A stretch of 32,000 nt of DNA, from contig CP064993.1 of the NCBI GenBank assembly GCA_016699955.1, forward strand, positions 630,001-662,000, read 5' to 3'. Positions 1-20,923 of this stretch are shown here, in pieces. Made by a program: the position numbers and the translations under genes. The DNA comes from Candidatus Saccharimonadota bacterium. Its GTDB lineage: Bacteria > Patescibacteriota > Saccharimonadia > Saccharimonadales > UBA4665. Positions within the stretch are counted from its first letter, which is position 1, and each line of letters begins with the position of its first letter. The notes under the pieces were generated by a model. It did not search any database and was not told where the DNA came from. It saw only the letters and a list, made by a program, of their open reading frames with translations.

Positions 1-3000
1 AGACTGGGACACCAGGAACCGCTCAGACCGGGCACTTCAACATCTCTGGCACAGGTATAGCTGCCATCTTGCAGGGCTCAACTAGCGTCCTCACCCCCAT
101 CCTAGACACTGCCGCCGCTGGCACCCTAACCATTGGCGGTACCAATGCTTCTTCTATTTCTCTGGCAGATGACACCGTCCTGGCTGCCAACAAGACCATC
201 ACCATCACAGGCGGCGATACAACTACTCGCAACGGGCTGACTCCAACCGAAGGTATGGTATTCTACGACACTACCACCAAACAACTTCTAATCTACGCCA
301 ATGGCAAGTGGCAGGCTGACAGAGAAACGGCTACAAAGATCGTAGCCCCGAGTACTGCTAGCCAAGCCCTGAAAGATGCTGCCGACTATGTCGCAACAGG
401 TAGCGCCGATCAAACCATCATTAACACCGCTCTTACCGCTGCCGCTGGTGGCAAAGTTGTTCTACTCGAAGGAACATTTACTACCAGTGATGCTATCTCC
501 ATACCAAACAACACGACACTAGCTGGTAACGGTCGTGGCACCTTAGTTACCTTTAGTAACATTGCAACTCAGAACAAGAACATGATCACCAACACAGATA
601 CTACCAATGGTGAAGGCGTGGTTGTCCGTGATCTCCGCCTCGATGGTAACAAAGCCGTCAACACCAGTGGTACTCAGCATGGTATATATATGAACAACGT
701 CGGTTTTGGCTCAAGCGGTGCCGGCATATTGCAAGGACCAACCGTCATTAACACTTGGGTCAACAACTTCCGTTCTACTGGTATCTACTACTACAGCAGC
801 TCAAACGGTACCGTTGCCAACAACAATGTCCTTTACAACGTCGGTGACGGTATCAACATCAACGGGAGTAACCGCGTTACCGTCAGTAACAACACCGTCA
901 TGGTGAACTCAGCCTTCGGTATCCGTGTCAGTGGGTCACTGGCTGTTACCGTGAATGCCAACACTATTGCCGGCAATGGCCTTCTGGCTGGCACGAACAC
1001 CGGTGGTGGTGTCTTGTTTGACGGCAGCAGCTCCAACAACGCCATTACCAACAACAGCCTCCGTGAGAACGGTGCCAGCAGTGGTACGGCCAACAGTAGT
1101 ATTTACATTGCCACTGCTAGCAATAACAGTATTACTGGTAACTCTATCTACGACTCGGCTGGTACCGGTCAGGGTATCCACATCTACGACGCTGCCTCAG
1201 TCTCTAACTACTTTGCCGACAACACCATGGTTGGTACTGGTGCTACTGGCATCATAGACAACGGCACTACTACCATATGGGGTGGTCAAACCAATGCCAG
1301 CGGCAACTTCATGATACAGCCAGCTGGAACTATTGAGCTGATGAAGAACACTAACATTGCCGCTAACCAGAACATTACCTTTGCAGCTGGGTCTGGTAAC
1401 TTCGACCAATCTGCTAGTAGTGGTACCTTTGCTACTGGCACGGGTGCCGTCAGCCTGAACGGAGATACAACTGTAGCTAGTGGTAAGAACCTGACTGTCA
1501 CCAGTGGCACCACAGCACTAACCGGCACTACCAACATAAACACCTCGGGTGCCGCTGCCACCAGCATCGGTACTGGCACTGGCAATAACACTGTTGGTAA
1601 CACCACAGGTACTCTCGGCCTGACGGGTAGCACAGTAACAGTTGCTGGTAATACTAGTATTAATACAACAGGTACTAACACAACCACCATAGGCTCTGTC
1701 ACTGCTGGTGCAGTTAGTATTACTTCCAATGCCCCTAGCAACTTCACCACCAACACAGGTGCCCTCACCCTCACCAGTGCCGCTGCTACCACCTGGAGCA
1801 CAACAGCCGGTGCTCTAACCCTGCAAGGTGCAGCTGGTGCGACCATTAAGTCTGCTGCTGGTACGACATCTAGTGATGTAACTGTCTCCACTGGCAATGC
1901 CAGCGCTGGCGCTAGTGGCAACATCACCATAGATACTGGTACCTACACCAGCGGTACTCCGACTGTGAACATCGGTACTACAGTTGCCGGCGCAGTCACC
2001 ATCGGCCGAGCTGCTACTACCACTACTATCCAAGGCTCTACCAAAGTAACTCCTCAAGCCTCGGCTAGCACCACACTACTGTGTACTAACGCCGGAGTCA
2101 TCTCCACCTGTGATGCTGCAGTACTTGCCCCAACTGCTACTAACTTCATCCAGAACCAGACAGCCTCTACCCAAACAGCTGGCTTTAAGATAGATGGCAC
2201 CGGTACAGCCGGCACATTAGTCGGTACAACAGCTGTCCAAGCACCGCTCTTTGATACTGCTTCGGCCGTAGCCCTAAACATAGGCACTACCAATGCCACC
2301 CAGATTAATCTCAACAAGAATGTATCCATTGCTGCTAACCAGAACATTACCTTTGCAGCTGGGTCTGGTAACTTCGACCAATCTGCTAGTAGTGGTACCT
2401 TTGCTACTGGCACGGGTGCCGTCAGCCTGAACGGAGATACAACTGTAGCTAGTGGTAAGAACCTGACTGTCACCAGTGGCACCACAGCACTAACCGGCAC
2501 TACCAACATAAACACCTCGGGTGCCGCTGCCACCAGCATCGGTACTGGCACTGGCAATAACACTGTTGGTAACACCACAGGTACTCTCGGCCTGACTGGT
2601 AGCACAGTCACAGTTGCTGGTAATACTAGTATTAATACAACAGGTACTAACACAACCACCATAGGCTCTGTCACTGCTGGTGCAGTTAGTATTACTTCCA
2701 ATGCCCCTAGCAACTTCACCACCAACACAGGTGCCCTCACCCTCACCAGTGCCGCTGCTACCACCTGGAGCACAACAGCCGGTGCTCTAACCCTGCAAGG
2801 TGCAGCTGGTGCGACCATTAAGTCTGCTGCTGGTACGACATCTAGTGATGTAACTGTCTCCACTGGCAATGCCAGCGCTGGCGCTAGTGGCAACATCACC
2901 ATAGATACTGGTACCTACACCAGCGGTACTCCGACTGTGAACATCGGTACTACAGTTGCCGGCGCAGTCACCATCGGCCGAGCTGCTACTACCACTACTA

Positions 3001-3130
3001 TCCAAGGCTCTACCAAAGTAACTCCTCAAGCCTCGGCTAGCACCACACTACTGTGTACTAACGCCGGAGTCATCTCCACCTGTGATGCTGCAGTACTTGC
3101 CCCAACTGCTACTAACTTCATCCAGAACCA
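1..3130 (+). repeat. Copy A of a 3.13-kb dispersed direct repeat (partner 14194-17322); extends beyond the window edge
   Basis: By-eye base alignment: nt 1 corresponds to 14194 and nt 3130 to 17322. Only scattered substitutions and five 1-bp indels differ within the block. Similarity stops after ...ttcatccagaacca (3131 aaatgcc versus 17323 gacagcc). Confidence 0.9.
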
Positions 3131-6044
3131 AAATGCCGGGGCACAGGCTACCAGTAACTTCTGGATTAGTGGTACGGGTAGGGCAAACACTAGCTTCCTG
3201 ACCCCCACTCTTGACACCGCCACCGGTGTTGCCCTAAACATCGGCAATACCAATGCGACCAGCATTGTTATAGGTCAAGCGAGTACCACTGCCAGCGTCA
3301 AGAGCACCCTTTCACTCGATGGCACCGCTTTAAATAATGTACGGCTGTCTTTGTCTGGAACGCTCAGCGCTAGTAACACCTCAGCTATATATGGCATCCA
3401 GAATCAGATGAACTTCAGCCCAACCGGCGGCTCTCTAAGTAGCCTGTACGGCTTTATCAATCTTCCGACTATATCAGGCAGTAACTATGCAATCGGCGAC
3501 GTCTACGCCGCCTTTAACCGCATTGATACGACAGCCGGCTACACCGGTCAGATAACCAATGGGTATGGTCTGCGAATTGATGCCCCAAGTCTTGCCGGTA
3601 GTCCTGGTGCAGGCGTAGCCAAGATTTTAAACTACACAGGTATCTACGTAAATGGTACTAGTAATGGTGGCAACACAAGTAACACAATCAGTAACTACGG
3701 TATACGGCTTCCGGGCAGTTCTGCTACAGCTGGTGCTGGTGGTATACTCAACAACTACACTGCTCACATCACTGTTCCAACAGGCGGGGCCACAGGAACA
3801 ACCAGCAACTACGGCCTTTATTTGACAGGCGCTGGTGGTGCCGCAACGACAAACTACGCCATCTACAATAGTTCTACCGCCGCCAACTACCTCCAGGGCA
3901 ACACCAGTATTGGAACAGCCAGTAACCCAAATGGCTACGTCCTCAACGTCCAAGGCACAGTAGGCGCAAGCGGTGGGGCTATAAACCTAAACGTTAGTAG
4001 CAACTATGCAGTCAACATAGGCACTGGCACAACTAACGTAGCCGTGACCATTGGTAACACTGCCAACACAACAAACTTTGGCTCACGCACAATCAATATC
4101 GGTACGGCTGGTGCAACGAATACAGTTCAGGGGGCAGCACAAACGGCAGCCAATACGACTGGCGATCAGCTAACCATTAAGGGCAGTGCTGGTCTGGGGA
4201 GTGGTAACGGTGGTACCCTACTCCTGTCGGGTGGAGATGCTGGCGGTACCGGAAAGATGGGTCTTGTTAGCTTGAATCCAACTGCATTTGCAGCATCTTC
4301 TACGGTCACACTTTCGGCCACTAACTCTTTGAATACATTGCTTACAAACGGCACAAACAACTACGGAACAGTTCCAGTCAATGCCACTGGTACAGGCTAT
4401 GTATTGACGGTTGATTTGCCTACAGTGACAACTGTTGGTCGTATTTTGTACATCACCGCTGTCAATGGCAGCTCCGACTTTACGCTGTCGCTAGCGGGCA
4501 CCTCAGTTAGCATCAGCATGAAGGCGAATAGTACCGCGACTTTGGTGTACAACGGTACCGGCTGGACAGCAGCTGGTGCCAGTAGCTCAACCGACCTTCA
4601 GGCCGCTTACAACAATACCCTCACTAGCGCTGGTGGTGCAGAGCTGGTCTTGAATGCACCTGGCGGAGCTGCCGACGGTTTGACTATTCGTAATAACGGC
4701 ACGACACCGCTCTCTGGAGGCCTCCTAGAAGTCCAAACAGCTGTTGGTACCAACCTGTTCAGTGTTAATAGCTACGGTACCGAGCTGGCGAGCAACGGTG
4801 GTGCGGAAACGGCTGGAGGGTCAAGCATAACCTTCCCGGCAAGTACATGGTCGGCGCAGAGCACAGCAACGGTTAGCCGCACGGTGACCAGTGGTGAATA
4901 CCAGACGGGTCAGGCAGGTGTGAAAGTTGTAACGACCGGTATATCTCAAGGTGCCAAGAACCAGCTATCGGGTAATCCTGTTACTGGCTCTGTTACGTAT
5001 ACTGTCTCGTTCACTGCCGCTTCGAGTACGGCGGGTCAGAACACAACACCGATAGAGGTCATCTATTCTCCAGACAACGGCACGACTATGACGAACACGT
5101 GTCAAGGCTTTGGCGGTGGTTACACAACCTCACGGCCCATCTCAAACTACACGAGCTACAACTGGACGAAAGTTACCTGTACGGTAACCACCACTGCGAC
5201 CGCAGTGACCACACCACTACTCATAATCCGTCAGACAGATGCGACTTCGCGCACGTTTTACATAGACAACCTCAGTTTCATCCGCAATGACTCCACGACT
5301 CGCCCTGCAAACGTTCAAATCGGGGGTGGTAACACAGGTGGTCAAGTCACTCTCTTTACCTTTGACCGCTCGAGTACAGCCCCACTTGTCTCTGGAAGTG
5401 ATGACCGCTATCTGGGCTCAATGTACTACGACACAACCCTCGGAAACATTCAGTGTTACGAGGCTGACGGATGGGGCGCCTGCGGTAGCGCCCCAGACAA
5501 CATCATTACGCTTACACCGGAGTACTCAAACGCTGTACTTAGCGCTCCGGGTACCATGGGAGGAACGTTTACTGCGACTGGCGTAGGTACGCTGACGGCC
5601 GATTTCTGTTCGAACGAAAACACCGTCCTCCAAGTCAACACCGGCTTCTGCGCGAACCACGTATCTCGCAACTACTACCGCTGGACTTCACCTCAGGCAA
5701 CGGCACAAACCTACAGTATTTATGTCTCGTACAAATTGCCGAGCACCTTCAAAACGTTCTACGACGACAACACTATCAAGCTGACTGGTTTACGTGACCA
5801 CGCAACGAACTCGACTGCCGCTCTCAGTGTATTCAGAAGTACTGGTAGTGCTGTGACTCAGTGTGGGTCAACCACAACCGTGACGACAGCGACCAGTTCA
5901 TGGACAACAACTAGCTTGACGGGCAACGAAACAGGGTGTGGTTTTGCCGCTGGTGATGTTGTGCTGTTCAAAATAAATGTGACGGCACAGAGTAACGCCA
6001 ACGTGTACGTTGAAAACCTAGAGTTCAGGTATACCAATAAGTAA
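1..6044 (+). CDS. Giant fibre-like secreted/surface protein, 5'-truncated by the window edge (2013 codons in window; reading phase starts at nt 3). Contains a parallel beta-helix region, a 2 x 324-aa tandem repeat, a CBM4_9-like module and a beta-rich C-terminal tip.
   Basis: The frame is open from nt 3 to TAA 6042-6044; ORF-track entry 69..6044 is the same frame from an internal TTG. nt 1-3130 are ~99% identical to 14194-17322 of the downstream paralog, whose upstream part carries a signal peptide, so the true start lies left of the window. Degenerate ~22-aa repeats (VSNNTVMVNSAFGIRVSG, VNANTIAGNG, ITNNSLRENG, ITGNSIYDSAG) fit a right-handed parallel beta-helix of PbH1/NosD type. Composition is T/N/G/S/A-rich with very few charged residues. 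The pattern NGGAE..W...FYIDNLSFI at ~4740-5290 resembles CBM4_9. Confidence 0.85.
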   Translation, partial: TGTPGTAQTGHFNISGTGIAAILQGSTSVLTPILDTAAAGTLTIGGTNASSISLADDTVLAANKTITITGGDTTTRNGLTPTEGMVFYDTTTKQLLIYANGKWQADRETATKIVAPSTASQALKDAADYVATGSADQTIINTALTAAAGGKVVLLEGTFTTSDAISIPNNTTLAGNGRGTLVTFSNIATQNKNMITNTDTTNGEGVVVRDLRLDGNKAVNTSGTQHGIYMNNVGFGSSGAGILQGPTVINTWVNNFRSTGIYYYSSSNGTVANNNVLYNVGDGININGSNRVTVSNNTVMVNSAFGIRVSGSLAVTVNANTIAGNGLLAGTNTGGGVLFDGSSSNNAITNNSLRENGASSGTANSSIYIATASNNSITGNSIYDSAGTGQGIHIYDAASVSNYFADNTMVGTGATGIIDNGTTTIWGGQTNASGNFMIQPAGTIELMKNTNIAANQNITFAAGSGNFDQSASSGTFATGTGAVSLNGDTTVASGKNLTVTSGTTALTGTTNINTSGAAATSIGTGTGNNTVGNTTGTLGLTGSTVTVAGNTSINTTGTNTTTIGSVTAGAVSITSNAPSNFTTNTGALTLTSAAATTWSTTAGALTLQGAAGATIKSAAGTTSSDVTVSTGNASAGASGNITIDTGTYTSGTPTVNIGTTVAGAVTIGRAATTTTIQGSTKVTPQASASTTLLCTNAGVISTCDAAVLAPTATNFIQNQTASTQTAGFKIDGTGTAGTLVGTTAVQAPLFDTASAVALNIGTTNATQINLNKNVSIAANQNITFAAGSGNFDQSASSGTFATGTGAVSLNGDTTVASGKNLTVTSGTTALTGTTNINTSGAAATSIGTGTGNNTVGNTTGTLGLTGSTVTVAGNTSINTTGTNTTTIGSVTAGAVSITSNAPSNFTTNTGALTLTSAAATTWSTTAGALTLQGAAGATIKSAAGTTSSDVTVSTGNASAGASGNITIDTGTYTSGTPTVNIGTTVAGAVTIGRAATTTTIQGSTKVTPQASASTTLLCTNAGVISTCDAAVLAPTATNFIQNQNAGAQATSNFWISGTGRANTSFLTPTLDTATGVALNIGNTNATSIVIGQASTTASVKSTLSLDGTALNNVRLSLSGTLSASNTSAIYGIQNQMNFSPTGGSLSSLYGFINLPTISGSNYAIGDVYAAFNRIDTTAGYTGQITNGYGLRIDAPSLAGSPGAGVAKILNYTGIYVNGTSNGGNTSNTISNYGIRLPGSSATAGAGGILNNYTAHITVPTGGATGTTSNYGLYLTGAGGAATTNYAIYNSSTAANYLQGNTSIGTASNPNGYVLNVQGTVGASGGAINLNVSSNYAVNIGTGTTNVAVTIGNTANTTNFGSRTINIGTAGATNTVQGAAQTAANTTGDQLTIKGSAGLGSGNGGTLLLSGGDAGGTGKMGLVSLNPTAFAASSTVTLSATNSLNTLLTNGTNNYGTVPVNATGTGYVLTVDLPTVTTVGRILYITAVNGSSDFTLSLAGTSVSISMKANSTATLVYNGTGWTAAGASSSTDLQAAYNNTLTSAGGAELVLNAPGGAADGLTIRNNGTTPLSGGLLEVQTAVGTNLFSVNSYGTELASNGGAETAGGSSITFPASTWSAQSTATVSRTVTSGEYQTGQAGVKVVTTGISQGAKNQLSGNPVTGSVTYTVSFTAASSTAGQNTTPIEVIYSPDNGTTMTNTCQGFGGGYTTSRPISNYTSYNWTKVTCTVTTTATAVTTPLLIIRQTDATSRTFYIDNLSFIRNDSTTRPANVQIGGGNTGGQVTLFTFDRSSTAPLVSGSDDRYLGSMYYDTTLGNIQCYEADGWGACGSAPDNIITLTPEYSNAVLSAPGTMGGTFTATGVGTLTADFCSNENTVLQVNTGFCANHVSRNYYRWTSPQATAQTYSIYVSYKLPSTFKTFYDDNTIKLTGLRDHATNSTAALSVFRSTGSAVTQCGSTTTVTTATSSWTTTSLTGNETGCGFAAGDVVLFKINVTAQSNANVYVENLEFRYTNK
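1362..3305 (+). repeat. In-frame tandem duplication, 2 units of 972 bp (324 aa), inside fibre gene 1
   Basis: gctaaccagaacattacc recurs at 1362 and 2334, a period of exactly 972 bp. About 790 bp of each unit (1362-2152 versus 2334-3124) are nearly identical; I saw 2 substitutions. The last ~180 bp of the units are homologous but diverged (QTASTQTAGFKIDGTG... versus QNAGAQATSNFWISGTG...). Confidence 0.9.
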
Positions 6045-6108: not shown

Positions 6109-6267
6109 ATGAACAACTATCAAACAACAATACCACCTCCAACCAAGTCTTCTATACGGGCGGGACCGTGTAGAAGGCTGGAAGACCGAGAACTCCACGC
6201 CCCAAAATCAAAACAAAATTCAAAACCTTTAAAACCAAACAAACATATACAAAAGGAATTAATATGA
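6109..6267 (+). CDS. Candidate small ORF (52 aa, very basic, Pro/Lys-rich); hypothetical
   Basis: ATG 6109 is preceded by AAAAGGA at a 6-nt spacing. The product is MNNYQTTIPPPTKSSIRAGPCRRLEDRELHAPKSKQNSKPLKPNKHIQKELI. Its stop TGA 6265-6267 overlaps the next ATG (ATGA). It is below the ORF-track size cutoff and I recognised no homology. Confidence 0.25.
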   Translation: MNNYQTTIPPPTKSSIRAGPCRRLEDRELHAPKSKQNSKPLKPNKHIQKELI

Positions 6268-6386
6268 AAAAGGATCGAAAGAGGCAAGATGATCGAGTCC
6301 TGAAGCGACTGCCGCAAAATGAGCGGCGGAAGCAGGTTCGACTGCGGCGGCAGATACAAAGCGACCCATTGTTTGCACTGGCTTAG
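6264..6386 (+). CDS. Candidate small ORF (40 aa, Arg/Lys-rich); hypothetical, apparently translationally coupled to 6109-6267
   Basis: ATG 6264 has the same AAAAGGA-N6-ATG arrangement and an ATGA overlap with the upstream small ORF. The product is MKKDRKRQDDRVLKRLPQNERRKQVRLRRQIQSDPLFALA. An intrinsic-terminator-like hairpin lies ~80 nt downstream. Confidence 0.25.
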   Translation: MKKDRKRQDDRVLKRLPQNERRKQVRLRRQIQSDPLFALA

Positions 6387-6465
6387 TCAGACCCCTACGG
6401 GGTTAGCTCCTCCTCGTTATTGTCAAATAGTGGCTTTACGGAAAACAAAAACAAAAACTCGCGGT

Positions 6466-6495
6466 AAAATCCCAGGTGAAAACCCTGGGATTTTA
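6466..6495. terminator. Intrinsic-terminator-like hairpin, symmetric and usable on either strand
   Basis: aaaatcccagg (6466-6476) and cctgggatttt (6484-6494) form a perfect 11-bp inverted repeat with a GC core tcccagg/cctggga, a 7-nt loop and a T-run at the 3' side. It lies between fibre gene 1 with its small ORFs and the Kelch gene. Confidence 0.55.
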
Positions 6496-6600: not shown

Positions 6601-9600
6601 GTGGAAGACAGAAAAATCCAAGCAATGACGCATGGTTTGTCCGAATCTCAGGGAGGGGCGGCTAATGTTCCTCGTAAAACAGTTACACTGCGTTTGGGGC
6701 TTATGCCTCGTGGGATTATTCTGGTTGTTCGTGCTGCGTGGGCTAAGCTGCGGCGTGCAGTGAATAAGCTGGAAAAATACATTCTGCTTAGTTTGCCAAA
6801 ACCATTGGCACGAAAACTCTACTTTTTACGTCCAAAACGTCGAAAACATCCAGTGCTGGCACGGCTAGGCTGGGGTGCGATGGCGCTTCTGATGCTTTTT
6901 GCGGCAAATTCCCAACTGCTGTCGGTGCGACAAAAGGACATAATATACGCGCTTTCACCGCGAGCAGAAGCTTTGCTTGGCAAGGCAAACCAATCATACG
7001 AACAAAGTCTTCGTTTAGATTACAAACAAGGCAGCTATCTTTACAACGATGGATATCGCTCGAGCGCAGAAGTGATTTCTCAGGGTACTCCAAAATTTAG
7101 TGCCTCATTTAGTCTTGATCCAAAGCAAGGCGTCATGGTTACCGATCCTGCCACGGGTGCAAAACTGACGTTTGTGCCAGAGTTTGCACTGCATGAGCCC
7201 CGGCAATCACAAAATCGACTGATCTATCCTGTGGCGGGTAGTACTGCGCAAAAAGTGTATACGGCGCGAGCAGCAAGCATCAAAGAAGATATTATCTTAA
7301 ATCAATACAGTACGGACTCGATGGAATTTAAATACACACTTAAAACCGATACTGGTACAGAGGCGCGGATGGAATCAGACGGCTCGCTTGGCGTATACGG
7401 CGTAAACTCGGCATTGCTTGGGGCGGTTTCGACGGGATCTGAGTCGGATACAAAACTGCTTGAACAGGCGAGGGCAAATGGCGAAAAAAACCGCTTACTC
7501 TTCACTCTGCCCGCTCCTTACATACGGGAGTCGGGTAGAAAAACGAGTCAGGCAAAAGCTTGGTATAGCTTGAATAAAGACGTCCTTACGGTGCACGCAA
7601 CTAACTTACAATCTGCTAACTACCCTCTAACAATCGACCCTACTGTCTATATTGAAACTGCACGGAAGCTCATGAAAGGCAACAACGAAACAAATGTTGA
7701 CTTTGACGTCGATAACGAACTCATACAAAAAAGCCAGACTACCGGGGCTCGCATTGACTACTGGTCTGACACGACAGAAATGAGTAGCGGTGTTTGGGAT
7801 CAAGCGATGGCTTCGGCTGGGGGTTTTGTGTACCGCTCGGGTGGTCGTATAGATCCGACCATGCCGTATGTGGCTAGCCAGCAGGCGACCACACAGGCAA
7901 CAAACAGCCTAAGTTTTACTATGAATATGCCCACGCTGCGTCCAGCAGGTGATTTGTACGTTGCGCTAATTGCAAAAGACGGCGATAACAGAGTATCACC
8001 ACCTGCTGGATGGACGGAGTATGCCGATTTGCAGCAACACGCAGCGTACTACAAAGAAGGAACAGACCAGGGCGGGGGGAATGAAGCCGCGACATACCAG
8101 TGGACGGTTGCAACAACGGCAGAGCAATGGACGGGAATTATTCTGCGGATAAAAAACTTCAATGCCGGCTCACCAGTTAGCGGTACAGCAGGCACTACCA
8201 GCGCAGCCTCTGGAATCCCACAGTTTCCGGCTACAACACCTGGACATGATGCAACTTTGGTAATACGGGCAACAGGCTTTGACGAAGATCAACCCAGCGA
8301 AGCAACATGGTTACCGCTGGGCCATACCCGCGTTTATTCTGGAACAAGTAGCGACACAGACGCCGTCAACAGCGCTGCCCTTGTCGCGACCACTCTAGAT
8401 GTTCCGCCGCTGGCGAGCAATAGCACCGCCGCCGCATCTTTGATAAATGACGGGCTAATCAATGATTCTTACGGTGCATCTTCTATTGCTATTCGGCCGG
8501 CGACTGTCACAGCAGGGTACCAGAACATGCTCGAATGGGCCCAGGTTAACCCCTCTGCGGGAACAATCGATAGCCCCAATCCGGGAGCCGGTACGTGTAG
8601 TGGCTGGTGCACGCAGGCTGTCTATAATTTGCCGGCCAATCGAGTAGGCATGTCGATGTATGCGTACAATGGTTTTCTGTACGCCATTGGCGGGACTACC
8701 GACGGTACCGCTGCAAACGCACAGAACACGGTGTGGGTTGCCAAACTAGGTGCTAACGGCGAGCCGCAGTTGTGGCACCCATCTGGCGGCACGCCAACCT
8801 ATTGGTACGCCTCTACAAACACGCTTCCCGTCGCACTCAGTTATACAGCCATTAGCATTGCCAACAACAGATTATATTTGCTTGGCGGCAGGAACACAGG
8901 TGGCACCAGCGTTGACACGGTTCGGGTTGCCGACGTACTGGCAACTGGTGATATTGGGCCCTGGTCGACAACAGGTATGCAAAACTTGCCAGATGTCCGC
9001 CACGGTCACAGCGTGCAGTTTTATAATGACGTTATGTACCTTATTGGCGGGAATAGCAGTGGCACACTCCGCAACACTGTGTACTTTAGTAAAATGAACG
9101 CCGACGGAACGATGAATTCATGGTCTCAAACAAGCACATTCACGACCGCACGTGCCAGTATGGGTGGCTCCATGACGACTGTTTGGGGTGGGTATGTGTA
9201 TATGGGTGGGGGATGCTCGGGCTTAACTGGTGCCTATTGCAGTACCATTGCAAGCGATGTCCAGCTAGCGAGTATTAATGCCGATGGTTCACTCGCCGAC
9301 TGGAACACTATACTGAATCTCAGTAACCAGCGCATTGGGTACAGTCTTGTGGCGTGGCAAAACGGGCTGTACCGTTTTGGTGGCTGTAACCGGCAAAATA
9401 CGACCACCGGTGTGTGCTATGCGGTACATAGAGATGTTGAATATGGAATAGTCAACCCAGACGGTGATGCGAGCACCGTAAGTAATTCTGAACCAGCCAA
9501 CACGGGCAACTGTGTTACGCCTAACTTTACCGACTGTGACCTTCCTGGTGGTGGTGATGGTGCAGAGCAGGGCGGGCAAATGAGCAACATGGTAGTGATA

Positions 9601-12264: not shown

Positions 12265-12279
12265 CATAAGGAAGACAAC

Positions 12280-13452: not shown

Positions 13453-13481
13453 CCCTCTGGCTCTCCGCCAAGAGGGGTTTT
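13453..13481 (+). promoter_or_regulatory. Terminator/attenuator-like hairpin in the leader of fibre gene 2
   Basis: ccctctgg (13453-13460) pairs with ccaagaggg (13468-13476, one bulged A) and is followed by gttttgtgg. It lies ~70 nt upstream of the likely start ATG 13551, inside a ~480-bp AT-rich gap. Confidence 0.3.
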
Positions 13482-13550
13482 GTGGTATTTGGCCGCCGTA
13501 AACACTTGTATGCTCTGAAAAGCTGGTCACATTCGTGCATTCTTTGGCTC

Positions 13551-14885
13551 ATGCAACGATTTTCTTTTCGAGTATCGAAGCAAGGTGTACAGGTAGCCCT
13601 CGCTGTTTCTTTGCTCCTCCTACCCCTATTTTTCCTCACGCGTGGGTACACAGGCGTAGAACACGCCTATGCCGCCACTTCCGACAACCTGAACTTCCAA
13701 GCTCGCCTAGAGAACTCTGCCGGAGCCATCGCTGCCGATGGCTTCTACAACCTCCAGTTCAAGCTCTACGACGCTGCCAGTGGTGGTACCCTCCTCTGGA
13801 CTGAAACCTACGACTACAACGGTGGTACCCCTGACCGTCGTGTTAGGGTAGCCAACGGCTACGTCACCGTCAACCTAGGCTCTATCACCAGCTTCCCTGG
13901 CAGCATGCCCTGGGATCAGCAGCTTTACCTCACCATGAACGTTGGCGGTACTGGCACCTCAGCCTCATGGGACGGAGAAATGAACCCACGCCTCAAACTC
14001 ACTGCCGTACCCTATGCCTTCAACGCCAAGACAGCCAGTCAGCTTGTTACCACCAGCGGTGTTTTCATCTCCACCCTGGCTATCCAATCCCCGACAGGTG
14101 GAAACCAAACCCTCCACCTCCAAAATCAGGGAGCAGCCGGAACCTACAACCTCCTAACCGCACCATCGCGCAGTGATGGCTACATCAAGCTGCAGACTGG
14201 GACACCAGGAACCGCTCAGACCGGGCACTTCAACATCTCTGGCACAGGTATAGCTGCCATCTTGCGGGGCTCAACCAGCGTCCTCACCCCCATCCTAGAC
14301 ACTGCCGCCGCTGGCACCCTAACCATTGGCGGTACCAATGCTTCTTCTATTTCTCTGGCAGATGACACCGTCCTGGCTGCCAACAAGACCATCACCATCA
14401 CAGGCGGCGATACAACTACTCGCAACGGGCTGACTCCAACCGAAGGTATGGTATTCTACGACACTACCACCAAACAACTTCTAATCTACGCCAATGGCAA
14501 GTGGCAGGCTGACAGAGAAACGGCTACAAAGATCGTAGCCCCGAGTACTGCTAGCCAAGCCCTGAAAGATGCTGCCGACTATGTCGCAACAGGTAGCGCC
14601 GATCAAACCATCATTAACACCGCTCTTACCGCTGCCGCTGGTGGCAAAGTTGTTCTACTCGAAGGAACATTTACTACCAGTGATGCTATCTCCATACCAA
14701 ACAACACGACACTAGCTGGTAACGGTCGTGGCACCTTAGTTACCTTTAGTAACATTGCAACTCAGAACAAGAACATGATCACCAACACAGATACTACCAA
14801 TGGTGAAGGCGTGGTTGTCCGTGATCTCCGCCTCGATGGTAACAAAGCCGTCAACACCAGTGGTACTCAGCATGGTATAATATGA
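13551..14885 (+). pseudogene. Fibre gene 2 fragment A (signal peptide, N-terminal module, first part of beta-helix A)
   Basis: ORF-track entry 13413..14885. It ends at a TGA created by loss of one base in the tatatat run present in gene 1 (ggtatatatatgaac versus ggtataatatgaac). Confidence 0.6.
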
Positions 14886-14919
14886 ACAACGTCGGTTTGG
14901 CTCAAGCGGTGCCGGCATA

Positions 14920-15648
14920 TTGCAAGGACCAACCGTCATTAACACTTGGGTCAACAACTTCCGTTCTACTGGTATCTACTACTACAGCAGCTCAAACGGT
15001 ACCGTTGCCAACAACAATGTCCTTTACAACGTCGGTGACGGTATCAACATCAACGGGAGTAACCGCGTTACCGTCAGTAACAACACCGTCATGGTGAACT
15101 CAGCCTTCGGTATCCGTGTCAGTGGGTCACTGGCTGTTACCGTGAATGCCAACACTATTGCCGGCAATGGCCTTCTGGCTGGCACGAACACCGGTGGTGG
15201 TGTCTTGTTTGACGGCAGCAGCTCCAACAACGCCATTACCAACAACAGCCTCCGTGAGAACGGTGCCAGCAGTGGTACGGCCAACAGTAGTATTTACATT
15301 GCCACTGCTAGCAATAACAGTATTACTGGTAACTCTATCTACGACTCGGCTGGTACCGGTCAGGGTATCCACATCTACGACGCTGCCTCAGTCTCTAACT
15401 ACTTTGCCGACAACACCATGGTTGGTACTGGTGCTACTGGCATCATAGACAACGGCACTACTACCATATGGGGTGGTCAAACCAATGCCAGCGGCAACTT
15501 CATGATACAGCCAGCTGGAACTATTGAGCTGATGAAGAACACTAACATTGCCGCTAACCAGAACATTACCTTTGCAGCTGGGTCTGGTAACTTCGACCAA
15601 TCTGCTAGTAGTGGTACTTTGCTACTGGCACGGGTGCCGTCAGCCTGA
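14920..15648 (+). pseudogene. Fibre gene 2 fragment B (rest of beta-helix A)
   Basis: ORF-track entry 14920..15648. Its protein is identical to gene 1 residues QGPTVINTWVNN...FDQSASSGT until the CC>C deletion at ~15617. Confidence 0.6.
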
Positions 15649-17498
15649 ACGGAGATACAACTGTAGCTAGTGGTAAGAACCTGACTGTCACCAGTGGCAC
15701 CACAGCACTAACCGGCACTACCAACATAAACACCTCGGGTGCCGCTGCCACCAGCATCGGTACTGGCACTGGCAATAACCAGCGTTGGTAACACCACAGG
15801 TACTCTCGGCCTGACTGGTAGCACAGTAACAGTTGCTGGTAATACTAGTATTAATACAACAGGTACTAACACAACCACCATAGGCTCTGTCACTGCTGGT
15901 GCAGTTAGTATTACATCCAATGCCGCTAGCAACTTCACCACCAACACAGGTGCCCTCACCCTCACCAGTGCCGCTGCTACCACCTGGAGCACAACAGCCG
16001 GTGCTCTAACCCTGCAAGGTGCAGCTGGTGCGACCATTAAGTCTGCTGCTGGTACGACATCTAGTGATGTAACTGTCTCCACTGGCAATGCCAGCGCTGG
16101 CGCCAGTGGTAACATCACCATAGATACTGGTACCTACACCAGCGGTACCTCCGACTGTGAACATCGGTACTACAGTTGCCGGCGCAGTCACCATCGGCCG
16201 AGCTGCTACTACCACTACTATCCAAGGCTCTACCAAAGTAACTCCTCAAGCCTCGGCTAGCACCACACTACTGTGTACTAACGCCGGAGTCATCTCCACC
16301 TGTGATGCTGCAGTACTTGCCCCAACTGCTACTAACTTCATCCAGAACCAGACAGCCTCTACCCAAACAGCTGGCTTTAAGATAGATGGCACCGGTACAG
16401 CCGGCACATTAGTCGGTACAACAGCTGTCCAAGCACCGCTCTTTGATACTGCTTCGGCCGTAGCCCTAAACATCGGCACTACCAATGCCACCCAGATTAA
16501 TCTCAACAAGAATGTATCCATTGCTGCTAACCAGAACATTACCTTTGCAGCTGGGACTGGTAGCTTTGACCAGTCTGCTAGTAGTGGTACCTTTGCTACT
16601 GGCACGGGTGCCGTCAGCCTGAACGGAGATACAACTGTAGCTAGTGGTAAGAACCTGACTGTCACCAGTGGCACCACAGCACTAACCGGCACTACCAACA
16701 TAAACACTTCGGGTGCTGCTGTCACCAGCATCGGTACTGGCACTGGTAATAACAGTGTTGGTAACACCACAGGTACTCTCGGCCTGACTGGTAGTACAGT
16801 AACAGTTGCTGGTAATACTAGTATTAATACAACAGGTACTAACACAACCACCATAGGCTCTGTCACTGCTGGTGCAGTTAGTATTACATCCAATGCCGCT
16901 AGCAACTTCACCACCAACACAGGTGCCCTGACCCTCACCAGCGCCGCTGCTACCACCTGGAGCACAACAGCCGGTGCCCTAACCCTGCAAGGTGCAGCTG
17001 GTGCGACCATTAAGTCTGCTGCTGGTACGACATCTAGTGATGTAACTGTCTCCACTGGCAATGCCAGCGCTGGCGCCAGTGGTAACATCACCATAGATAC
17101 TGGTACCTACACCAGCGGTACTCCGACTGTGAACATCGGTACTACAGTTGCCGGCGCAGTCACCATCGGCCGAGCTGCTACTACCACTACTATCCAAGGT
17201 TCTACCAAAGTAACTCCTCAAGCCTCGGCTAGCACCACACTGCTGTGTACTAACGCCGGAGTCATATCCACCTGTGATGCTGCAGTACTTACTCCAACTG
17301 CTACTAACTTCATCCAGAACCAGACAGCCTCTACCCAAACAGCTGGCTTTAAGATAGATGGCACCGGTACAGCCGGCACCTTAGTCGGTACAACAGCTGT
17401 CCAAGCACCACTCTTTGATACCGCTTCGGCCATAGCCCTAAACATCGGCACTACCAATGCGACTAGCATAAACATCAACCAGAACACCGTCCTCGCTG
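15553..17498 (+). repeat. In-frame tandem duplication (2 units, 972 bp nominal) inside fibre gene 2
   Basis: gctaaccagaacattacc occurs at 15553 and 16526. The period is 973 bp because of a net +1 indel. Unit 2 carries several substitutions relative to unit 1 (GTGSFDQ versus GSGNFDQ, AAVTSIG versus AAATSIG, NNSVGN versus NNTVGN). Confidence 0.85.
15739..16260 (+). pseudogene. Fibre gene 2 fragment C (tandem repeat unit 1, middle part)
   Basis: ORF-track entry 15739..16260. The homologous reading frame is valid only between the +1 indels at ~15782 and ~16148. Confidence 0.55.
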
Positions 17499-17845
17499 CC
17501 GATAAATCTATCGTCATCACAGGAGGAGCCACCCGTCCAGCTAGTCCAGTAGAGGGCATGGTGTTCTATGATACTGCTACGAAACAACTTCTAACCTACG
17601 CTAATGGCAAGTGGCAAGCTGATGGCAAAGAAGCCATCATCGTCGCTGCTAGTGACTCCAGTGACGCCGACAAGGCTTCAGCTGACTACGTCGGAGATGG
17701 CAACACTGCTGCCGCCGCTGACGGTGACCAAGTCCAGATAAACGCTGCTCTGACCGCTGCCGACCCAGCTGGATCAGGCGAAGACTGGCAAGGTCGTCCT
17801 GCTCGCTGGTACCTACACCCTAGACGCAAGCGTATCTATTCCTAA
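16157..17845 (+). pseudogene. Fibre gene 2 fragment D (end of unit 1, unit 2, start of the second head/beta-helix module)
   Basis: ORF-track entry 16157..17845. Homology to the ...GKVVLL.G....IPNNTTLAG module is lost after ~17783 and is recovered in another frame. Confidence 0.6.
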
Positions 17846-18004
17846 TAACACACCCTAGCCGGTGTCGGTAACGCCACGAGCATAACTATCCCGAACTCTC
17901 TGAACGTCAACTTTAGCGCCATCGTCAACACCGACCAAACTACCGGCACCGGCGTTACTATCCAAGACCTAAGACTCGAGGGCAACAAAGCTAACCAATC
18001 CGGT

Positions 18005-20395
18005 GTGATCGCTATGGTAGGTGTTGACTTCAACAACATGGGCGGTGGCTCCGGCTCCGGTGCTCGCCAGGGTGCCAAGATACTGCATGTCCGGTCGAAT
18101 AGTTGGTACTACAATGCAAGTAGTAACTGTCAGGGCGGTCATGGCATTTGCTTGCGCAACAGCTCCAACAACACACTTACAGGCAACACTGTACAGGAAA
18201 ATGGTGGCCCCGGCATCAACTTGGAAAGTTCCCACAACAACACCCTTACCGGCAACACCGCGCAGGGCAATAACGGAGGCATTGGTCTCAATAATGCCGA
18301 CAACAATACTGTCACCGGTAATACTACGCAGGGGAATAGCGGCAGAGGTATCGTCAGCAGCTTTAGCTCCAGCAATACCTTCTCTGGCAACACCATGCAG
18401 GGGAATAGTAACGGCGGTATCTCTCTCTCCCTCGACTCTAACAGCACGGTATCCGGCAACACTATCCACGACAACGGTGGAGCGCTCACTAACAATGGCA
18501 TATCTATGGGCACTTCCGATACTAACACCATCATCGGAAACACTATCACGGATACCGGCTGCAGTACCAACTGCTATGCCATTGACATTAGCGACTCAGG
18601 TTCGGACAACAACTATCTCGCCGGGAACGTCTTCAGCACTACTTCTGGCACTGCCATCATCAACGACATTGGTACCGGCACGATCTACGCCGGTCAAGCC
18701 ATGACAGCCGGTGGTCTTGACATCCGCTTCAAACAAGCCGCCTCCGCTTCTGCCTTCCAAATCCAGAGCGGTGCAATAGACTACCTTACCGCCGACACAA
18801 GTGGTAACAAGATCCAAATAGGTTCCGCCACCACTGACGCCAATGCCATTCTCTTCGGCCTAGACAGCTACAACAACGCAACTGACCCCACTGGCTACAA
18901 CGGAGCCATGTACTACAACAGTAATACCAGTAAGTTCCGGTGTTATGAAGGCGGTATCTGGACAAACTGTGCCGGTGCTGCCGCTAGTGCCATCCAGAAC
19001 CAGTATGCTGGGACTCAGACTGCAAACTTTAACATACAAAGCGCCGCAGCCGCCCAGGTAGTCGCTGTTATCCAAGGCGCCGCTAGTCAAAGCGTGGATA
19101 TTCTCCAGGTAAAAGTTTCGGGCGGTAACATACCGTTTCGTGTCAGTTCTACTGGTGACGTGACTATGGCTAGAAACACACTGTATATGAATACGACCAC
19201 AACCAATGCACAGCGTATATACATTTCTGGCAACATAAATTCCGGCGCTGTTTCGCAGTACGGTATACAAAATGAGCCAATCTTCCTACCAACGGCTGGA
19301 GCTGCGGGTGGGAATATATTTGGTTTTACTAACACGGCAATGCTTGCAACCAGTAGCGTAAATATTGGTCAGATATTTGGATCTGTAACGGGCGTTTCAA
19401 CCAACGCAGATTACACAGGAACCCTTACGGCTGCACACGGCTTAAATATTCAAAATCCATCTATGTCCGGCAGTAAAGCAGCGAACTACTACGGTATTTC
19501 TATAAATGGTGTAACAAACAACGGTGGCAATACGTCGGGCACAATTAAGAACAACCAGTTATTCATAGGAAACACGACGGTAGGTGCAGGGGCAGGCGGC
19601 ATACTTTACAACGTTGGAGCGCGTATTGTAATCCCTTCTGGGTCTGGAGGCACCACTCATAACTCCGGTCTAGTTATAGCCGATAGCACCGCTTCTGTCT
19701 CTGGCACATGGTCCCTGTACAACAGTAGCGCCCAAGTAAGTTACTTTGCTAGTAACGTAACCATTGGTACTTTGCTAACAGCCGACGTTACGGCAGGTAA
19801 CGTTCAGATAGGATCTGCTACAACTGATGCTACTGCAAAACAGTTCGTGTTAGACAGCTACAACAACTCAACTGACCCAACAGGAGTTACGGGCGGCATG
19901 TACTACAACAGTGCACTTGCTGTGTTCCGCCGCTATGAAAACGGGGCTTGGAAGGACTGTTTAACGCGCCACCTCGTGACACTTGGTTCAGATATAACCA
20001 ACAACAACGCAACCGCCAACACCATTGCTAATGTTACAGGTCTCAGTTTTGCGGTTACATCTGGTAGAACGTATCGCTTCCATGCCAATATTGTCTATAC
20101 GGCTGCTGCTACCACTACAGGCTCTCGCTGGAGCGTCAATGGGCCTGCGACGTCGCTACTTAGCTACGCCACGCGCTACGGAACTACTGCCGCGACGGAG
20201 GCCTTTACCTATGCATCGGCGTACGACAACCCGGCGGCAAGCAACACCGATTCGCCAAGTACTGCGGGCAACACTGCAATTATAGAAGGAATTGTCACTC
20301 CTTCGGCCGGTGGAACTCTGACTGTCAGATTTGCCTCAGAGGTGTCAAGTTCGGCAATTGTAGCAAAAGCCGGCAGTACTATTGAGTGGTGGTAG
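18005..20395 (+). pseudogene. Fibre gene 2 fragment E (beta-helix B plus paralog-specific C-terminal cassette); the frame is open from 17858
   Basis: Contains ~22-aa beta-helix repeats (NNTLTGNTVQENGGPGINLESSH, NNTLTGNTAQGNNGGIGLNNAD, NNTVTGNTTQGNSGRGIV, NTFSGNTMQGNSNGGISL, STVSGNTIHDNGG). Two GxMYYNS...Y/CYE.G.W..C motifs follow, then a C-terminal beta-rich domain ending ...AKAGSTIEWW. Confidence 0.65.
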
Positions 20396-20443
20396 GTCGA
20401 GTTAATCCACCCCAGCTCGGTATAAGCACCGAGAAAGGGTTAA

Positions 20444-20923
20444 TCAGTCAAGCTCTTTGAGACTAGCAGCCATCTGGCTAATGACATCCTGTGGAGTACT
20501 GGAGTCGCCGCTAATGTTTACAAGTGTACGGCTGCCAGATATGATTGCGACTGGTGCTGCCCCGGCTTTGCCAATGTAAGCAGTCCCCAGGGCAGTTTTA
20601 ACAGGGTTAAGTCCGACTATGCTTTCAAGCATAAGATTTTTTTGAGGAAGTGCCTGTTCAGTAAATGTCATTAGTTGAGTGTTTTTTCTAAACTCAAAAA
20701 CAAGTATGCCATCGCTGTAGGCAACTGAGTCGGCATTGAGCTTGTAGCCTGGAGGGATGTTCTCTGGGTATAGAATGGGGAAGCCAACGCGGCTCAAAAT
20801 GGTTTTGTCAAAAGGCTGTTTGTTGTCTCTGCCAAAAAACACAAATGCCGCAGTACACAGCAGCAGTAAGACAAGGCAAATACTGCCTAGCCGTGATGCT
20901 TGTAACTTTGTGAGTTTTCTCAT
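20444..20923 (-). CDS. Small signal-anchored protein (159 aa), hypothetical; its external domain is related to that of 12280-13065
   Basis: The N-terminus MRKLTKLQASRLGSICLVLLLLCTAAFVFFG is a signal anchor. The segment VGFPILYPENIPPGYKL...MTFTEQALPQK...GTAYIG...VISQMAASL aligns by eye with LGYKPLVPPVSPEGKA...ITVDQQAVPEK...GTVYAS...WIDYIQTL of 12280-13065. It is convergent with fibre gene 2. Confidence 0.7.
   Translation of the reverse strand: MRKLTKLQASRLGSICLVLLLLCTAAFVFFGRDNKQPFDKTILSRVGFPILYPENIPPGYKLNADSVAYSDGILVFEFRKNTQLMTFTEQALPQKNLMLESIVGLNPVKTALGTAYIGKAGAAPVAIISGSRTLVNISGDSSTPQDVISQMAASLKELD

Follow-up and report, generated by a model that had tools for sequence, protein, structure and literature searches.

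The window analysed here, a stretch of 32,000 nt, carries five linked genes in the order fibre A, Kelch giant, P1, fibre B and P2 (5' to 3'), which we read, with roughly even confidence, as a surface-displayed, glycan-binding and tip-swapping fibre apparatus for host contact. This reading is drawn from sequences and structural models, and export signals, disulphide-type Cys pairs, a CBM-type fibre tip and an N-terminal domain resembling that of the MAT fibres of Bdellovibrio all fit it. The first four genes are located on the plus strand, whereas P2 lies on the opposite strand and converges with fibre B (Table 1). P2 is identical to QQS19292.1 from a 1.21-Mb Ca. Saccharibacteria chromosome and all related loci stem from Saccharibacteria MAGs, in agreement with the guess of a previous, sequence-only reading that the DNA belongs to an epibiotic bacterium with a reduced genome. 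The term “island” used there is a misnomer, as this is a conserved chromosomal locus adjoining parAB-lepB-LCP-htrA-prmC-prfA. Three giant proteins of about 1900–2300 aa had been proposed, which holds for fibre A (at least 2013 aa) and the Kelch giant (1887 aa), but not for fibre B, which is found in five pieces. The proposal that each block is followed by its own small anchored partner was not borne out, since P1 comes after the Kelch gene instead of a fibre gene and P2 is encoded on the minus strand; of the small anchored proteins said to lie 3' of the giants, P1 does so behind the Kelch gene, whereas P2 is not co-directional with fibre B. No literature on the fibre-Kelch-P1 gene set was found.

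Table 1. Features of the fibre-Kelch locus (window coordinates in nt; protein positions in aa).
Feature	Position	Strand	Remarks
Fibre A	3..6044	+	frame open from base 3; 5'-truncated by window; at least 2013 aa
Fibre A, linker motif GMVFYD..YANGKW	before beta-helix	+	first module seen
Fibre A, right-handed beta-helix	~320-1340	+	Pfam Beta_helix match
Fibre A, shaft	~1330-3280	+	two 972-nt (324-aa) T/G/A/S/N-rich repeats; 972-nt repeat spacing
Fibre A, “YG” solenoid module	~3300-3920	+
Fibre A, predicted CBM4/16/22-like sandwich	~4760-5320	+	AF2/Foldseek and profile of homologues
Fibre A, second, Cys-rich beta-sandwich tip	~5420-6041	+
Invariant 12-mer CGGGCGGGACCG	6157..6168	+	in fibre A-Kelch spacer; invariant in five-genome alignment; once in window
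Small ORF (MKKDRKRQDDRVLKRLPQNERRKQVRLRRQIQSDPLFALA)	6264..6389	+	41 aa, very basic; AAAGGAA ribosome-binding site
Terminator-like hairpin AAAATCCCAGG-loop-CCTGGGATTTT	6466..6494	+	between small ORF and Kelch gene
Kelch giant	6601..12264	+	single intact 1887-aa ORF
Kelch giant, N-terminal part	anchor aa 84-106		basic N-terminal tail; hydrophobic anchor; ~570-aa region without known domains
Kelch giant, C-terminal part	blades aa ~680-1720		17-18 blades, then ~150-aa C-terminal domain
P1	12280..13065	+	261 aa, bitopic membrane protein, intact; starts 15 nt after Kelch stop codon
P1, N-terminal side			conserved cytoplasmic motif MDxGKFK..DxDAW..WL, disordered basic linker, conserved juxtamembrane motif
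P1, TM helix	aa ~96-124		followed by ~100-aa alpha/beta ectodomain
Fibre B	13413..20395	+	interrupted by 7 single-base indels; ~2328 aa if repaired
Fibre B, ORF pieces	13413-14885, 14920-15648, 15739-16260, 16157-17845, 18005-20395	+	translation table 11
Fibre B, indels	14879, 14895, 15616, 15779, 16148, ~17770, ~17848		all single-base
Fibre B, Sec signal peptide	N-terminus	+	..AYA/ATSDN
Fibre B, MAT_N-like N-domain	~13671-14050	+	NCBIfam Bdello_MAT_N, below cutoff
Fibre B, block common with A	14194-17329	+	beta-helix 1 and two shaft repeats; 3.1 kb
Fibre B, beta-helix 2	~17700-18650	+
Fibre B, distal part	after beta-helix 2		linker motifs, solenoid module, ~145-aa tip differing from that of A
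P2	20444..20923	-	159 aa, N-terminally anchored, TM segment aa 6-33

Fibre A has the composition of an extracellular fibre, as had been noted earlier, with 63% T/N/G/S/A, 6.8% charged residues and six close Cys pairs. Its beta-helix, likewise recognized before, matches Pfam Beta_helix (PF13229) with 37.1 bits, where the cutoff is 25.9. A CBM-like and beta-sandwich tip had also been suspected, and several lines of evidence agree with it. The AF2 model of the tip (pLDDT 78) has the beta-jelly-roll fold of CBMs, and Foldseek matches it to CBM22, CBM16 and CBM4, with an E-value of 4.5e-9 for the CBM22 tandem 4xup and target TM-scores of 0.6–0.7 for CBM16, CBM4-2 and CBM61; CBM modules of phage tail-fibre and minor-tail proteins are resembled as well. 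Profile A2, built from homologues of the tip, matched PDB sequences of CBM16 (E 1e-4) and CBM22 (E 1.5e-4). PF02018 (CBM_4_9) is present in many homologues, while the window sequence alone gave no Pfam match at E<=0.01. Fibre A is modelled as ending in a tandem CBM4/16/22-type sandwich, a putative glycan binder. The name “trimeric autotransporter adhesin,” which JGI assigns to the homologue P0047, was considered and rejected, as no YadA anchor, head or stalk family was matched in Pfam and the C-terminus is a beta-sandwich tip instead of a YadA-type outer-membrane anchor.

The two fibres had been described as beta-helix paralogs flanking the Kelch gene. They do flank it and both contain beta-helices (for the fibre B fragments, Beta_helix scores of 56.8 and 108.8 bits against the cutoff of 25.9, and 100.7 bits for TIGR03804), but fibre B is frameshifted and a 3.1-kb block is near-identical between them. 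Window positions 1–3137 and 14194–17329 share ~98.7% of their DNA sequence, differing by 36 substitutions and five indels, so that the supposed paralogs are largely one recently homogenized block with different 3' halves. The 1045 aa common to both are 99% identical, the solenoid modules are 38% identical and the tips are unrelated. Judging from these alignments, distal modules are interchangeable between the two fibres. As in MAT fibres, a variable C-terminal tip is carried on a conserved N-domain and shaft; orthologous fibres range from 1353 to 3625 aa. The signal-peptide site AYA/ATS is conserved in the fibres, and both the signal peptide and the N-domain of fibre B recur in the L005 fibre that occupies the A position. 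The N-domains of all five orthologues analysed matched Bdello_MAT_N (NF053851) collinearly with E-values of 6.5e-6 to 0.016; no other NCBIfam family was matched by the fibre N-domain. The scores of 15–26 bits lie well below the NCBIfam cutoff of 60, which suggests a remote homologue of the MAT N-domain and not a member of the family.

Fibre B had been presented as an intact ORF of ~2300 aa; its five pieces are instead separated by seven single-base indels, confined to 3 kb at about 14879–17850. We consider uncorrected assembly errors in a repeat a somewhat more likely cause than true decay, since the indels lie in or near the repeat and the remaining large ORFs, in an unsystematic look at the window, seem uninterrupted. 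The sister MAG L006 exhibits frameshifts in all three giants, which also points to assembly error in repetitive genes. MAGs carrying an IPL or IPP tag presumably come from one long-read study. Alternatively, fibre B might be a true, recently inactivated pseudogene, leaving fibre A as the only functional fibre here, a scenario that we rate a little below an even chance. Seven frameshifts are, after all, present in the deposited sequence, homopolymer runs hold only some of them, and two indels are located 440–520 nt outside the A/B-identical block, so that an unpolished repeat does not obviously account for those two. In addition, L001 manages without fibre B. On the other hand, fibre B orthologues are intact in four relatives (L007, L008, L010 and, up to the contig end at a length of at least 1860 aa, L003), and 26 of the 36 A/B substitutions (72%) fall on third codon positions, the changed codons comprising 23 synonymous and 10 conservative ones. 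This pattern suggests that the fibre B frame is under coding selection. The absence of fibre B from L001 together with the frameshifted copy in the window indicates that at least one fibre is dispensable. As a practical matter, clustered frameshifts can occur in giant repetitive genes of long-read MAGs and are easily overlooked by eye.

The Kelch giant was predicted to have about 18 blades, and 17–18 blade motifs with a spacing of 51–83 aa were indeed counted. Kelch families exceed their gathering thresholds (PF24681, 89.8 bits with a cutoff of 50; PF01344, 55.8 with 20.1; PF13964, 39.3 with 25.3), and designed Kelch and KBTBD5 chains in the PDB are matched as well. The blades probably form three 6-bladed propellers. 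The protein contains 26 Cys residues in close pairs. Its orthologues in seven Saccharibacteria genomes are 48–86% identical. For the N-terminal region, only 21 homologues and no Pfam match were found; those with a taxon label are Saccharibacteria or Patescibacteria, with the exception of one MAG labelled Limnocylindrales. The export and anchor signals reported by the sequence-only reading were recovered as the signal peptide of fibre B and as N-terminal hydrophobic or TM segments of the Kelch giant, P1 and P2. In the Kelch giant and in P1, this single segment is the only anchor. Regular-expression and hydropathy scans for an LPXTG sortase anchor found nothing beyond an internal LPTAG in fibre B, and C-terminal TM segments were absent, in line with the earlier statement that LPXTG motifs are absent. 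No cytoplasmic-type domains were seen in the locus proteins.

The spacer between fibre A and the Kelch gene contains a small ORF that the sequence-only reading had missed. The encoded protein is 95% identical in L003, L006 and L008 and 83% identical in L010/L011, with nucleotide differences mostly at third codon positions, and it has no Pfam match. The hairpin downstream of it is kept in five genomes, and L010 shows a compensatory change in the stem (CCCAAG/CTTGGG).

The genes for the Kelch giant and P1, separated by 15 nt in the window, overlap in L001, and a P1 homologue follows the Kelch gene in every locus for which downstream DNA was available. The P1 ectodomain was modelled by AF2 with a pLDDT above 90, and its fold has no match in the PDB better than E 0.02. 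The 43 clusters of the P1 family are either without a name or called “hypothetical,” and those with a name come from Saccharibacteria; neither P1 nor its 32 aligned relatives match Pfam. As claimed before, both small proteins are anchored, by one N-terminal TM segment each, and are related to each other, though only at the profile level (hhalign probability 96.1%, E 3.1e-9; pairwise BLASTP E 0.38). P2 appears to be a remote homologue of the TM segment plus ectodomain of P1. Its inclusion in a conserved unit of block and partner did not stand, as L006 alone yielded a positional orthologue and the P2 family comprises 476 clusters at 50% identity. A search for DUF4367 had also been suggested: among 46 aligned P2-family members, seven match DUF4367 (best E 2.7e-5) and eight match DUF4245, but P1 and the P2 of the window reach no Pfam threshold. 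P1, P2 and the DUF4367/DUF4245 proteins share an N-terminal anchor followed by an alpha/beta ectodomain of ~110 aa, P1 differing by an additional conserved cytoplasmic segment of ~95 aa. P1 and P2 can be regarded as distantly DUF4367/DUF4245-like.

Co-conservation, on which the sequence-only reading had staked its gene set, was observed: at least eight further Saccharibacteria genomes show the fibre-Kelch-P1(-fibre) order, with loci in L001, L002, L003, L006, L007, L008 and L010/L011. The locus adjoins parAB in L001 and L007, the two relatives whose available DNA includes these genes. The annotation tables of S. epibionticum, the only Tn-seq-characterized Saccharibacterium, hold no Kelch entry, and the locus is thus not universal to the epibiotic lifestyle.

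In the proposed model, the fibres would be exported and would oligomerize, probably as trimers like the Bdellovibrio MAT and phage fibres, and dock on the cell envelope via the MAT_N-like N-domain, the most likely platform being the membrane-tethered, triple-propeller Kelch giant. Glycan-binding tips, possibly together with tailspike-like depolymerizing beta-helices, would face the surface polysaccharides of the host bacterium, and host range would be tuned by shuffling of tips and shafts between the two fibre genes and between genomes. P1 and P2, remote homologues of each other, may help in assembly or holding as membrane-anchored factors, or provide a transmembrane signal link. The fully specified version, a host-recognition organelle of environmental Saccharibacteria in which MAT-homologous trimeric fibres stand on a Kelch platform and recombination between the two fibre genes, for which the 3.1-kb block joined to different tips would be the trace, reprogrammes host range, is put forward tentatively and appears rather doubtful as a whole.

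Several other functions can be envisaged for the giants. They might be secreted polysaccharide-degrading enzymes feeding on host cell-wall or sludge exopolysaccharides, the Kelch protein being a lectin or mutarotase-like accessory, and M. amalyticus was reported to have arabinogalactan-degrading enzymes (PMC11880426). The strong Beta_helix and NosD/CASH-type matches would suit such a role, xylanases and endoglucanases carry modules of the CBM4/16/22 type, secreted polysaccharide lyases and hydrolases just as well combine a beta-helix with a CBM, and the Kelch region weakly matches the cyclically permuted mutarotase family. No catalytic family of glycoside hydrolases or lyases was matched, however, and tip swapping, the MAT_N-like N-domain and a non-catalytic repeat shaft of more than 1000 aa characterize fibres rather than enzymes, which renders this explanation unlikely. 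The two roles are not exclusive, given that phage tailspikes both bind and cleave. Less likely still is a structural envelope coat, S-layer-like or a “diffuse outer layer,” serving protection or shape without host specificity. The giants are very large, low-charge, T/S/G/N-rich proteins of an abundant type in a conserved housekeeping neighbourhood, and cryo-ET of a wastewater Saccharibacterium (PMC11880426) revealed a diffuse outer layer of the wall, its composition unknown. Pfam, however, matched no SLH or S-layer domains, close genomes differ strongly in fibre length and tips, and L001 has lost fibre B, a variability that fits host-range determinants better than a coat. A prophage or tailocin remnant, to which the fold and local sequence similarity to phage tail-fibre, minor-tail and neck-passage proteins might point, is highly improbable, since none of the six proteins matches a PHROG, no phage structural or replication genes lie among the housekeeping neighbours, the position beside parAB is the same in L001 and L007, two IMG/VR scans gave no relatives and tblastn of the C-terminal region of fibre B against 50,697 phage genomes found nothing.

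In host recognition by ultrasmall CPR/Patescibacteria epibionts, nothing but type IV pili and some adhesins of oral strains has been implicated so far. As a host-contact fibre apparatus, the locus would supply concrete candidates for what determines host range in Saccharibacteria of wastewater and soil that have not been cultured, being conserved and taxon-restricted, with putative glycan-binding, swappable tips and a weak but consistent link to the prey fibres of Bdellovibrio. If this is correct, tip modules might allow hosts to be predicted from metagenomes, and the Kelch giant and P1 would constitute a previously undescribed anchoring or assembly system. Should the fully specified version apply, CPR host specificity could be read from sequence and MAT-like fibres would belong to a cross-phylum toolkit of bacteria living on bacteria (Bdellovibrionota, Patescibacteria).

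In Saccharibacteria, the type IV pilus has been characterized as the host-attachment factor (PMC12206443, PMC11880426). Southlakia epibionticum also has essential envelope “adhesins,” namely VCBS, dockerin and FN3 proteins (Wang et al., 2023, PMC10633639). They resemble the giants described here in being large Saccharibacteria proteins located outside the cytoplasm, with domains of a glycan-binding type and a proposed role in targeting surface glycans of the host, though their domain content differs. Phage tail fibres and tailspikes, such as actinobacteriophage minor tail proteins and lactococcal neck-passage-structure proteins, share the right-handed beta-helix, distal sandwiches of the CBM-cenC type and a modular, mosaic organization with the window fibres, and a minor tail protein of a Streptomyces phage shows local similarity to the beta-helix cap (E 1e-5). 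The window fibres differ from them by a Sec signal peptide and a conserved chromosomal position outside any phage context or PHROG. The mosaic adhesive trimer (MAT) fibres of Bdellovibrio bacteriovorus are exposed on the cell surface and adhere to prey; their N-domain is invariant and their tips are swapped (Caulton et al., 2024, PMC10769870). Compared with these, the window fibres are two to three times longer, contain tandem repeats of 324 aa in the shaft and either one or two beta-helix domains of the pectate-lyase type, lack an S74 chaperone and match the N-domain far below the family cutoff; they belong to a Gram-positive-type CPR epibiont and are linked to a Kelch giant and P1 that have no MAT counterpart. 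Both kinds of fibre, however, are encoded by the cell and not by a phage, in organisms that live on other bacteria and carry several paralogues per genome, and both combine a signal peptide and a conserved, weakly homologous N-terminal domain with a long shaft rich in beta structure and exchangeable, variable C-terminal tips, lectin/CBM-type folds among them.

The first 21 kb of the window hold two giant beta-helix fibre genes (A and B), a giant Kelch gene between them and genes for two small anchored partners, P1 and P2 (Table), followed in the window by parA, parB and the genes for signal peptidase I, an LCP-family protein, a membrane protein, an HtrA-like protease, prmC, prfA and L31. The fibres are mosaic. 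An N-terminal signal peptide and the conserved junction AYA|ATS(D/S)NLNFQARL mark the start of fibre B, and the only NCBIfam model matched by the ~125-aa domain after the fibre signal peptide was NF053851, Bdello_MAT_N, the N-domain of the “mosaic adhesive trimer” (MAT) fibres of Bdellovibrio. The match was collinear in all five orthologues tested (E 6.5e-6 to 0.016), at 15-26 bits and thus below the cutoff of 60. As the sequence-only reading had proposed, both fibres contain right-handed beta-helix domains that score above the Pfam thresholds. A second and stronger such domain is present in fibre B; its cap shows local similarity to a minor tail protein of a Streptomyces phage (E 1e-5) as well as to lactococcal neck-passage proteins. 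The shaft includes two tandem 972-nt repeats. A and B share a “YG” solenoid module (38% identical) and a linker motif, …MYY..…CYE..W..C, and their tips differ. The extracellular-type composition proposed earlier was likewise recovered for fibre A, with 63% T/N/G/S/A, 6.8% charged residues and Cys in six close pairs; an LPXTG motif is absent.

For the 487 C-terminal residues of fibre A, there are at least 180 homologues, many of them carrying PF02018 (CBM_4_9); except for two, nearly all taxon-labelled ones are Saccharibacteria/Patescibacteria fragments. A profile built from these homologues matches CBM16 and CBM22 in the PDB. The AF2 model of the tip (pLDDT 78) shows two beta-sandwiches and matches a CBM22 tandem (E 4.5e-9), CBM16, CBM4 and CBM61 (TM 0.6-0.7) and, in BFVD, CBM-cenC modules of phage tail fibres. 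Homologues and model support the CBM-like, beta-sandwich tip suspected earlier, as a CBM-type, putative glycan-binding module.

Features of the window and of related loci (strand where given; positions relative to each sequence)
Sequence	Feature	Position	Strand	Remarks
Window	Fibre A	3-6044	+	Open from base 3 (bacterial code); at least 2013 aa, 5' end beyond window
Window	12-mer CGGGCGGGACCG	6157-6168	+	Invariant in five genomes; upstream of small ORF
Window	Small ORF	6264-6389	+	41 aa, very basic, MKKDRKRQDDRVLKRLPQNERRKQVRLRRQIQSDPLFALA; AAAGGAA ribosome-binding site upstream
Window	Terminator-like hairpin AAAATCCCAGG..CCTGGGATTTT	6466-6494	+	Conserved in five genomes; 3' of small ORF
Window	Kelch giant	6601-12264	+	1887-aa ORF
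Window	P1	12280-13065	+	261-aa ORF; starts 15 nt past Kelch stop codon
Window	Fibre B region	13413-20395	+	
Window	Fibre B ORF pieces	13413-14885, 14920-15648, 15739-16260, 16157-17845, 18005-20395		Bacterial code
Window	Fibre B indels, A/B-aligned block	14879, 14895, 15616, 15779, 16148		Single-base
Window	Fibre B compensating indels	near 17770 and 17848		~24 codons garbled; stop codon at 17843
Window	ORFs opposite shaft repeats	1286-1930, 2054-2902, 15708-16121, 16246-17094	-	137-282 aa, V/P/A/L-rich
Window	P2	20444-20923	-	159-aa ORF; convergent with fibre B
Window	P2-parA gap	20924-21815		~890 nt
Window	Perfect DnaA box	21037-21045		One, in P2-parA gap
Window	Strong terminator-like hairpin GCAGGCACTCTCGCAAGGCCTGC, then T-run	~21199-21230		In P2-parA gap
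L002	23S rRNA gene	15154-18932		Between P1-like gene and second fibre
L002	5S rRNA gene	19567-19681		Between P1-like gene and second fibre
L002	342-aa ORF		-	Inserted 3' of Kelch gene
L003	Y1 transposase ORF	10825-11457	-	
L004	Y1 transposase ORF	2752-3387	-	
L006	Y1 transposase ORF	~24450-25062	+	
L008	MazE/PIN toxin-antitoxin pair	3540-4154		Between fibre A and Kelch gene
L010	Y1 transposase ORF	3289-3639	+	

The Kelch giant matches Kelch families above their thresholds, and 17-18 blades were counted at residues ~680-1720, in line with the ~18 read from the sequence. It carries 26 Cys in close pairs and one hydrophobic segment (residues 84-106) after a basic tail. The 570-aa region N-terminal to the propellers has no Pfam match and only 21 database relatives, mostly unnamed, the labelled ones being Saccharibacteria/Patescibacteria with one exception labelled Limnocylindrales. 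In some of these relatives (P0172, P0178, P0183), Gly_rich_2 (PF21722) follows the first N-terminal module in place of part of this region, so the N-terminal half is modular too.

The 43 relatives of P1 are all unnamed or “hypothetical” and, where named, from Saccharibacteria, with no Pfam match. The N-terminus of P1 carries a conserved cytoplasmic motif, from which a disordered basic linker leads to a conserved juxtamembrane motif and a TM helix; an alpha/beta ectodomain of ~100 aa follows (modelled pLDDT >90), and no PDB fold matched the model better than E 0.02. P1 and P2 had been called related, and DUF4367 had been suggested; both hold at a remote level, since BLASTP detects no similarity (E 0.38) but the family profiles align with 96.1% probability (E 3e-9) across the TM segment and whole ectodomain, and 7 of 46 P2-family members match DUF4367 (8 match DUF4245). 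P2 belongs to a large family (476 clusters). Its sequence is that of QQS19292.1 (IPL85_03320), from a 1,211,496-bp Candidatus Saccharibacteria contig, and of the relatives examined only L006 has a P2 homologue in the same position. The gap between P2 and parA lacks a convincing gene and any Rfam match even at E<=1; L001 and L007 have a short spacer there.

Loci related through the Kelch giant (48-86% identity) all come from Saccharibacteria MAGs. L007 reads fibre (at least 3102 aa, open past the locus edge), Kelch (2108 aa), partner (330 aa), fibre (2042 aa), parA and parB; L003 fibre, Kelch (1916 aa), IS200-like ORF, P1 (260 aa) and fibre (at least 1860 aa); L008 (CP065016) fibre (3619 aa), MazE/PIN, Kelch (1906 aa), P1 (255 aa) and fibre (2854 aa); and L010 fibre (1353 aa), IS200-like ORF, Kelch (1958 aa), P1 (263 aa) and fibre (3625 aa). 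L006 (CP064992) has the order of the window, including a P2 homologue, and L001 has fibre, Kelch, P1-like gene and parA, with no second fibre. P1 or a P1-like gene comes after Kelch wherever downstream DNA is available. The synteny of fibre, Kelch and partner, which the sequence-only reading had put forward as a check, is found in these loci. The term “island”, used earlier, does not fit in the sense of a mobile element: by gene order and homology, the locus is conserved on the chromosome and varies in its fibre content. In relatives, it does take up insertions of IS200/RAYT-like genes and of a toxin-antitoxin pair; the Y1 transposase ORF (Pfam Y1_Tnp, E 6e-7) occupies different sites, and neither element is present in the window. 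In L002, the match to the 23S model covers 3779 nt where the model has 2925 positions, so that this gene probably holds an insertion or intron.

Fibre B had been taken as a single ORF; it is instead split into five by seven single-base indels, and mending all of them would yield one gene of ~2328 aa. Alignment of positions 1-3137 with 14194-17329 shows 36 substitutions and five of the indels. Since 26 of the 36 lie at third codon positions, and the changed codons include 23 synonymous and 10 conservative ones, the reading frame was under selection while the two copies diverged. All indels fall within 3 kb; on an unsystematic look at the rest of the window, its other large ORFs show no sign of interruption. 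Second-fibre orthologues are unbroken in L007, L008 and L010, and in L003 up to the contig end. In L006 (CP064992.1, 1093-23779, a “complete genome” MAG), frameshifts split all three giants and the P2 homologue into many ORFs; giant repetitive genes of these MAGs appear prone to uncorrected indel errors. On these grounds we lean modestly towards uncorrected assembly errors in a repeat. True pseudogenisation is only somewhat less probable; two points speak for it, namely that two indels fall outside the repeated block and that some are not in homopolymers. The long antisense ORFs over the shaft repeats are most likely not genes but a side effect of the biased Thr/Gly/Ala codon usage.

In the 556-nt spacer that separates fibre A from the Kelch gene, the first 55 nt are a purine-rich GAGATAAGAGA-type repeat. 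The protein of the small ORF in this spacer shows 95% identity in L003, L006 and L008, against only 55-77% for the flanking giants in these three, and 83% in L010/L011; nucleotide changes fall mostly at third codon positions. The ORF has no Pfam match, and L001, L002, L005 and L007 lack it. Its product could be a regulator or nucleic-acid-binding peptide of the locus. The hairpin shows a compensatory stem change in L010, and neither it nor the 12-mer matches Rfam.

Export or anchor signals, extracellular-type composition and mosaic fibres with differing tips occur together, and the fibre, Kelch and P1 genes are co-conserved and tightly linked. In the model we propose, the fibres would oligomerise and dock on the cell envelope via the MAT_N-like domain, with membrane-tethered Kelch propellers as the obvious candidate platform, and would present glycan-binding, possibly glycan-cleaving, modules to the surface of a host bacterium. 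Recombination between the two fibre genes, seen as the 3.1-kb homogenised block, may shuffle shafts and tips, while P1 and P2 might aid assembly or pass a signal across the membrane. We give this scheme as a whole an even chance. That the giants are secreted polysaccharide depolymerases is rather unlikely, and that they form an envelope coat more doubtful still. A phage remnant is highly improbable: no PHROG matches, no tblastn match for the C-terminal part of fibre B and no relatives in IMG/VR were found, and nothing in these searches places the fibre or Kelch genes in a phage.

Among Saccharibacteria, a Tn-seq study of S. epibionticum reported other envelope adhesins, with VCBS, dockerin and FN3 (PMC10633639), and Kelch proteins have no entry in its annotation tables. 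For a wastewater Saccharibacterium, a cryo-ET study ascribed attachment to type IV pili and noted a diffuse outer layer whose composition is not known (PMC11880426). No paper on the fibre-Kelch-P1 gene set was found, and such fibres have so far not been described in linkage with a Kelch giant and P1. The MAT fibres of Bdellovibrio are trimeric, surface-exposed, tip-swapping prey adhesins, whose invariant N-domain is thought to attach to the predator's own surface (PMC10769870); it is the model of this domain that the N-domain of the present fibres matches below cutoff. The fibres are best described as belonging with MAT or tail-fibre-like adhesins, as a distinct form.
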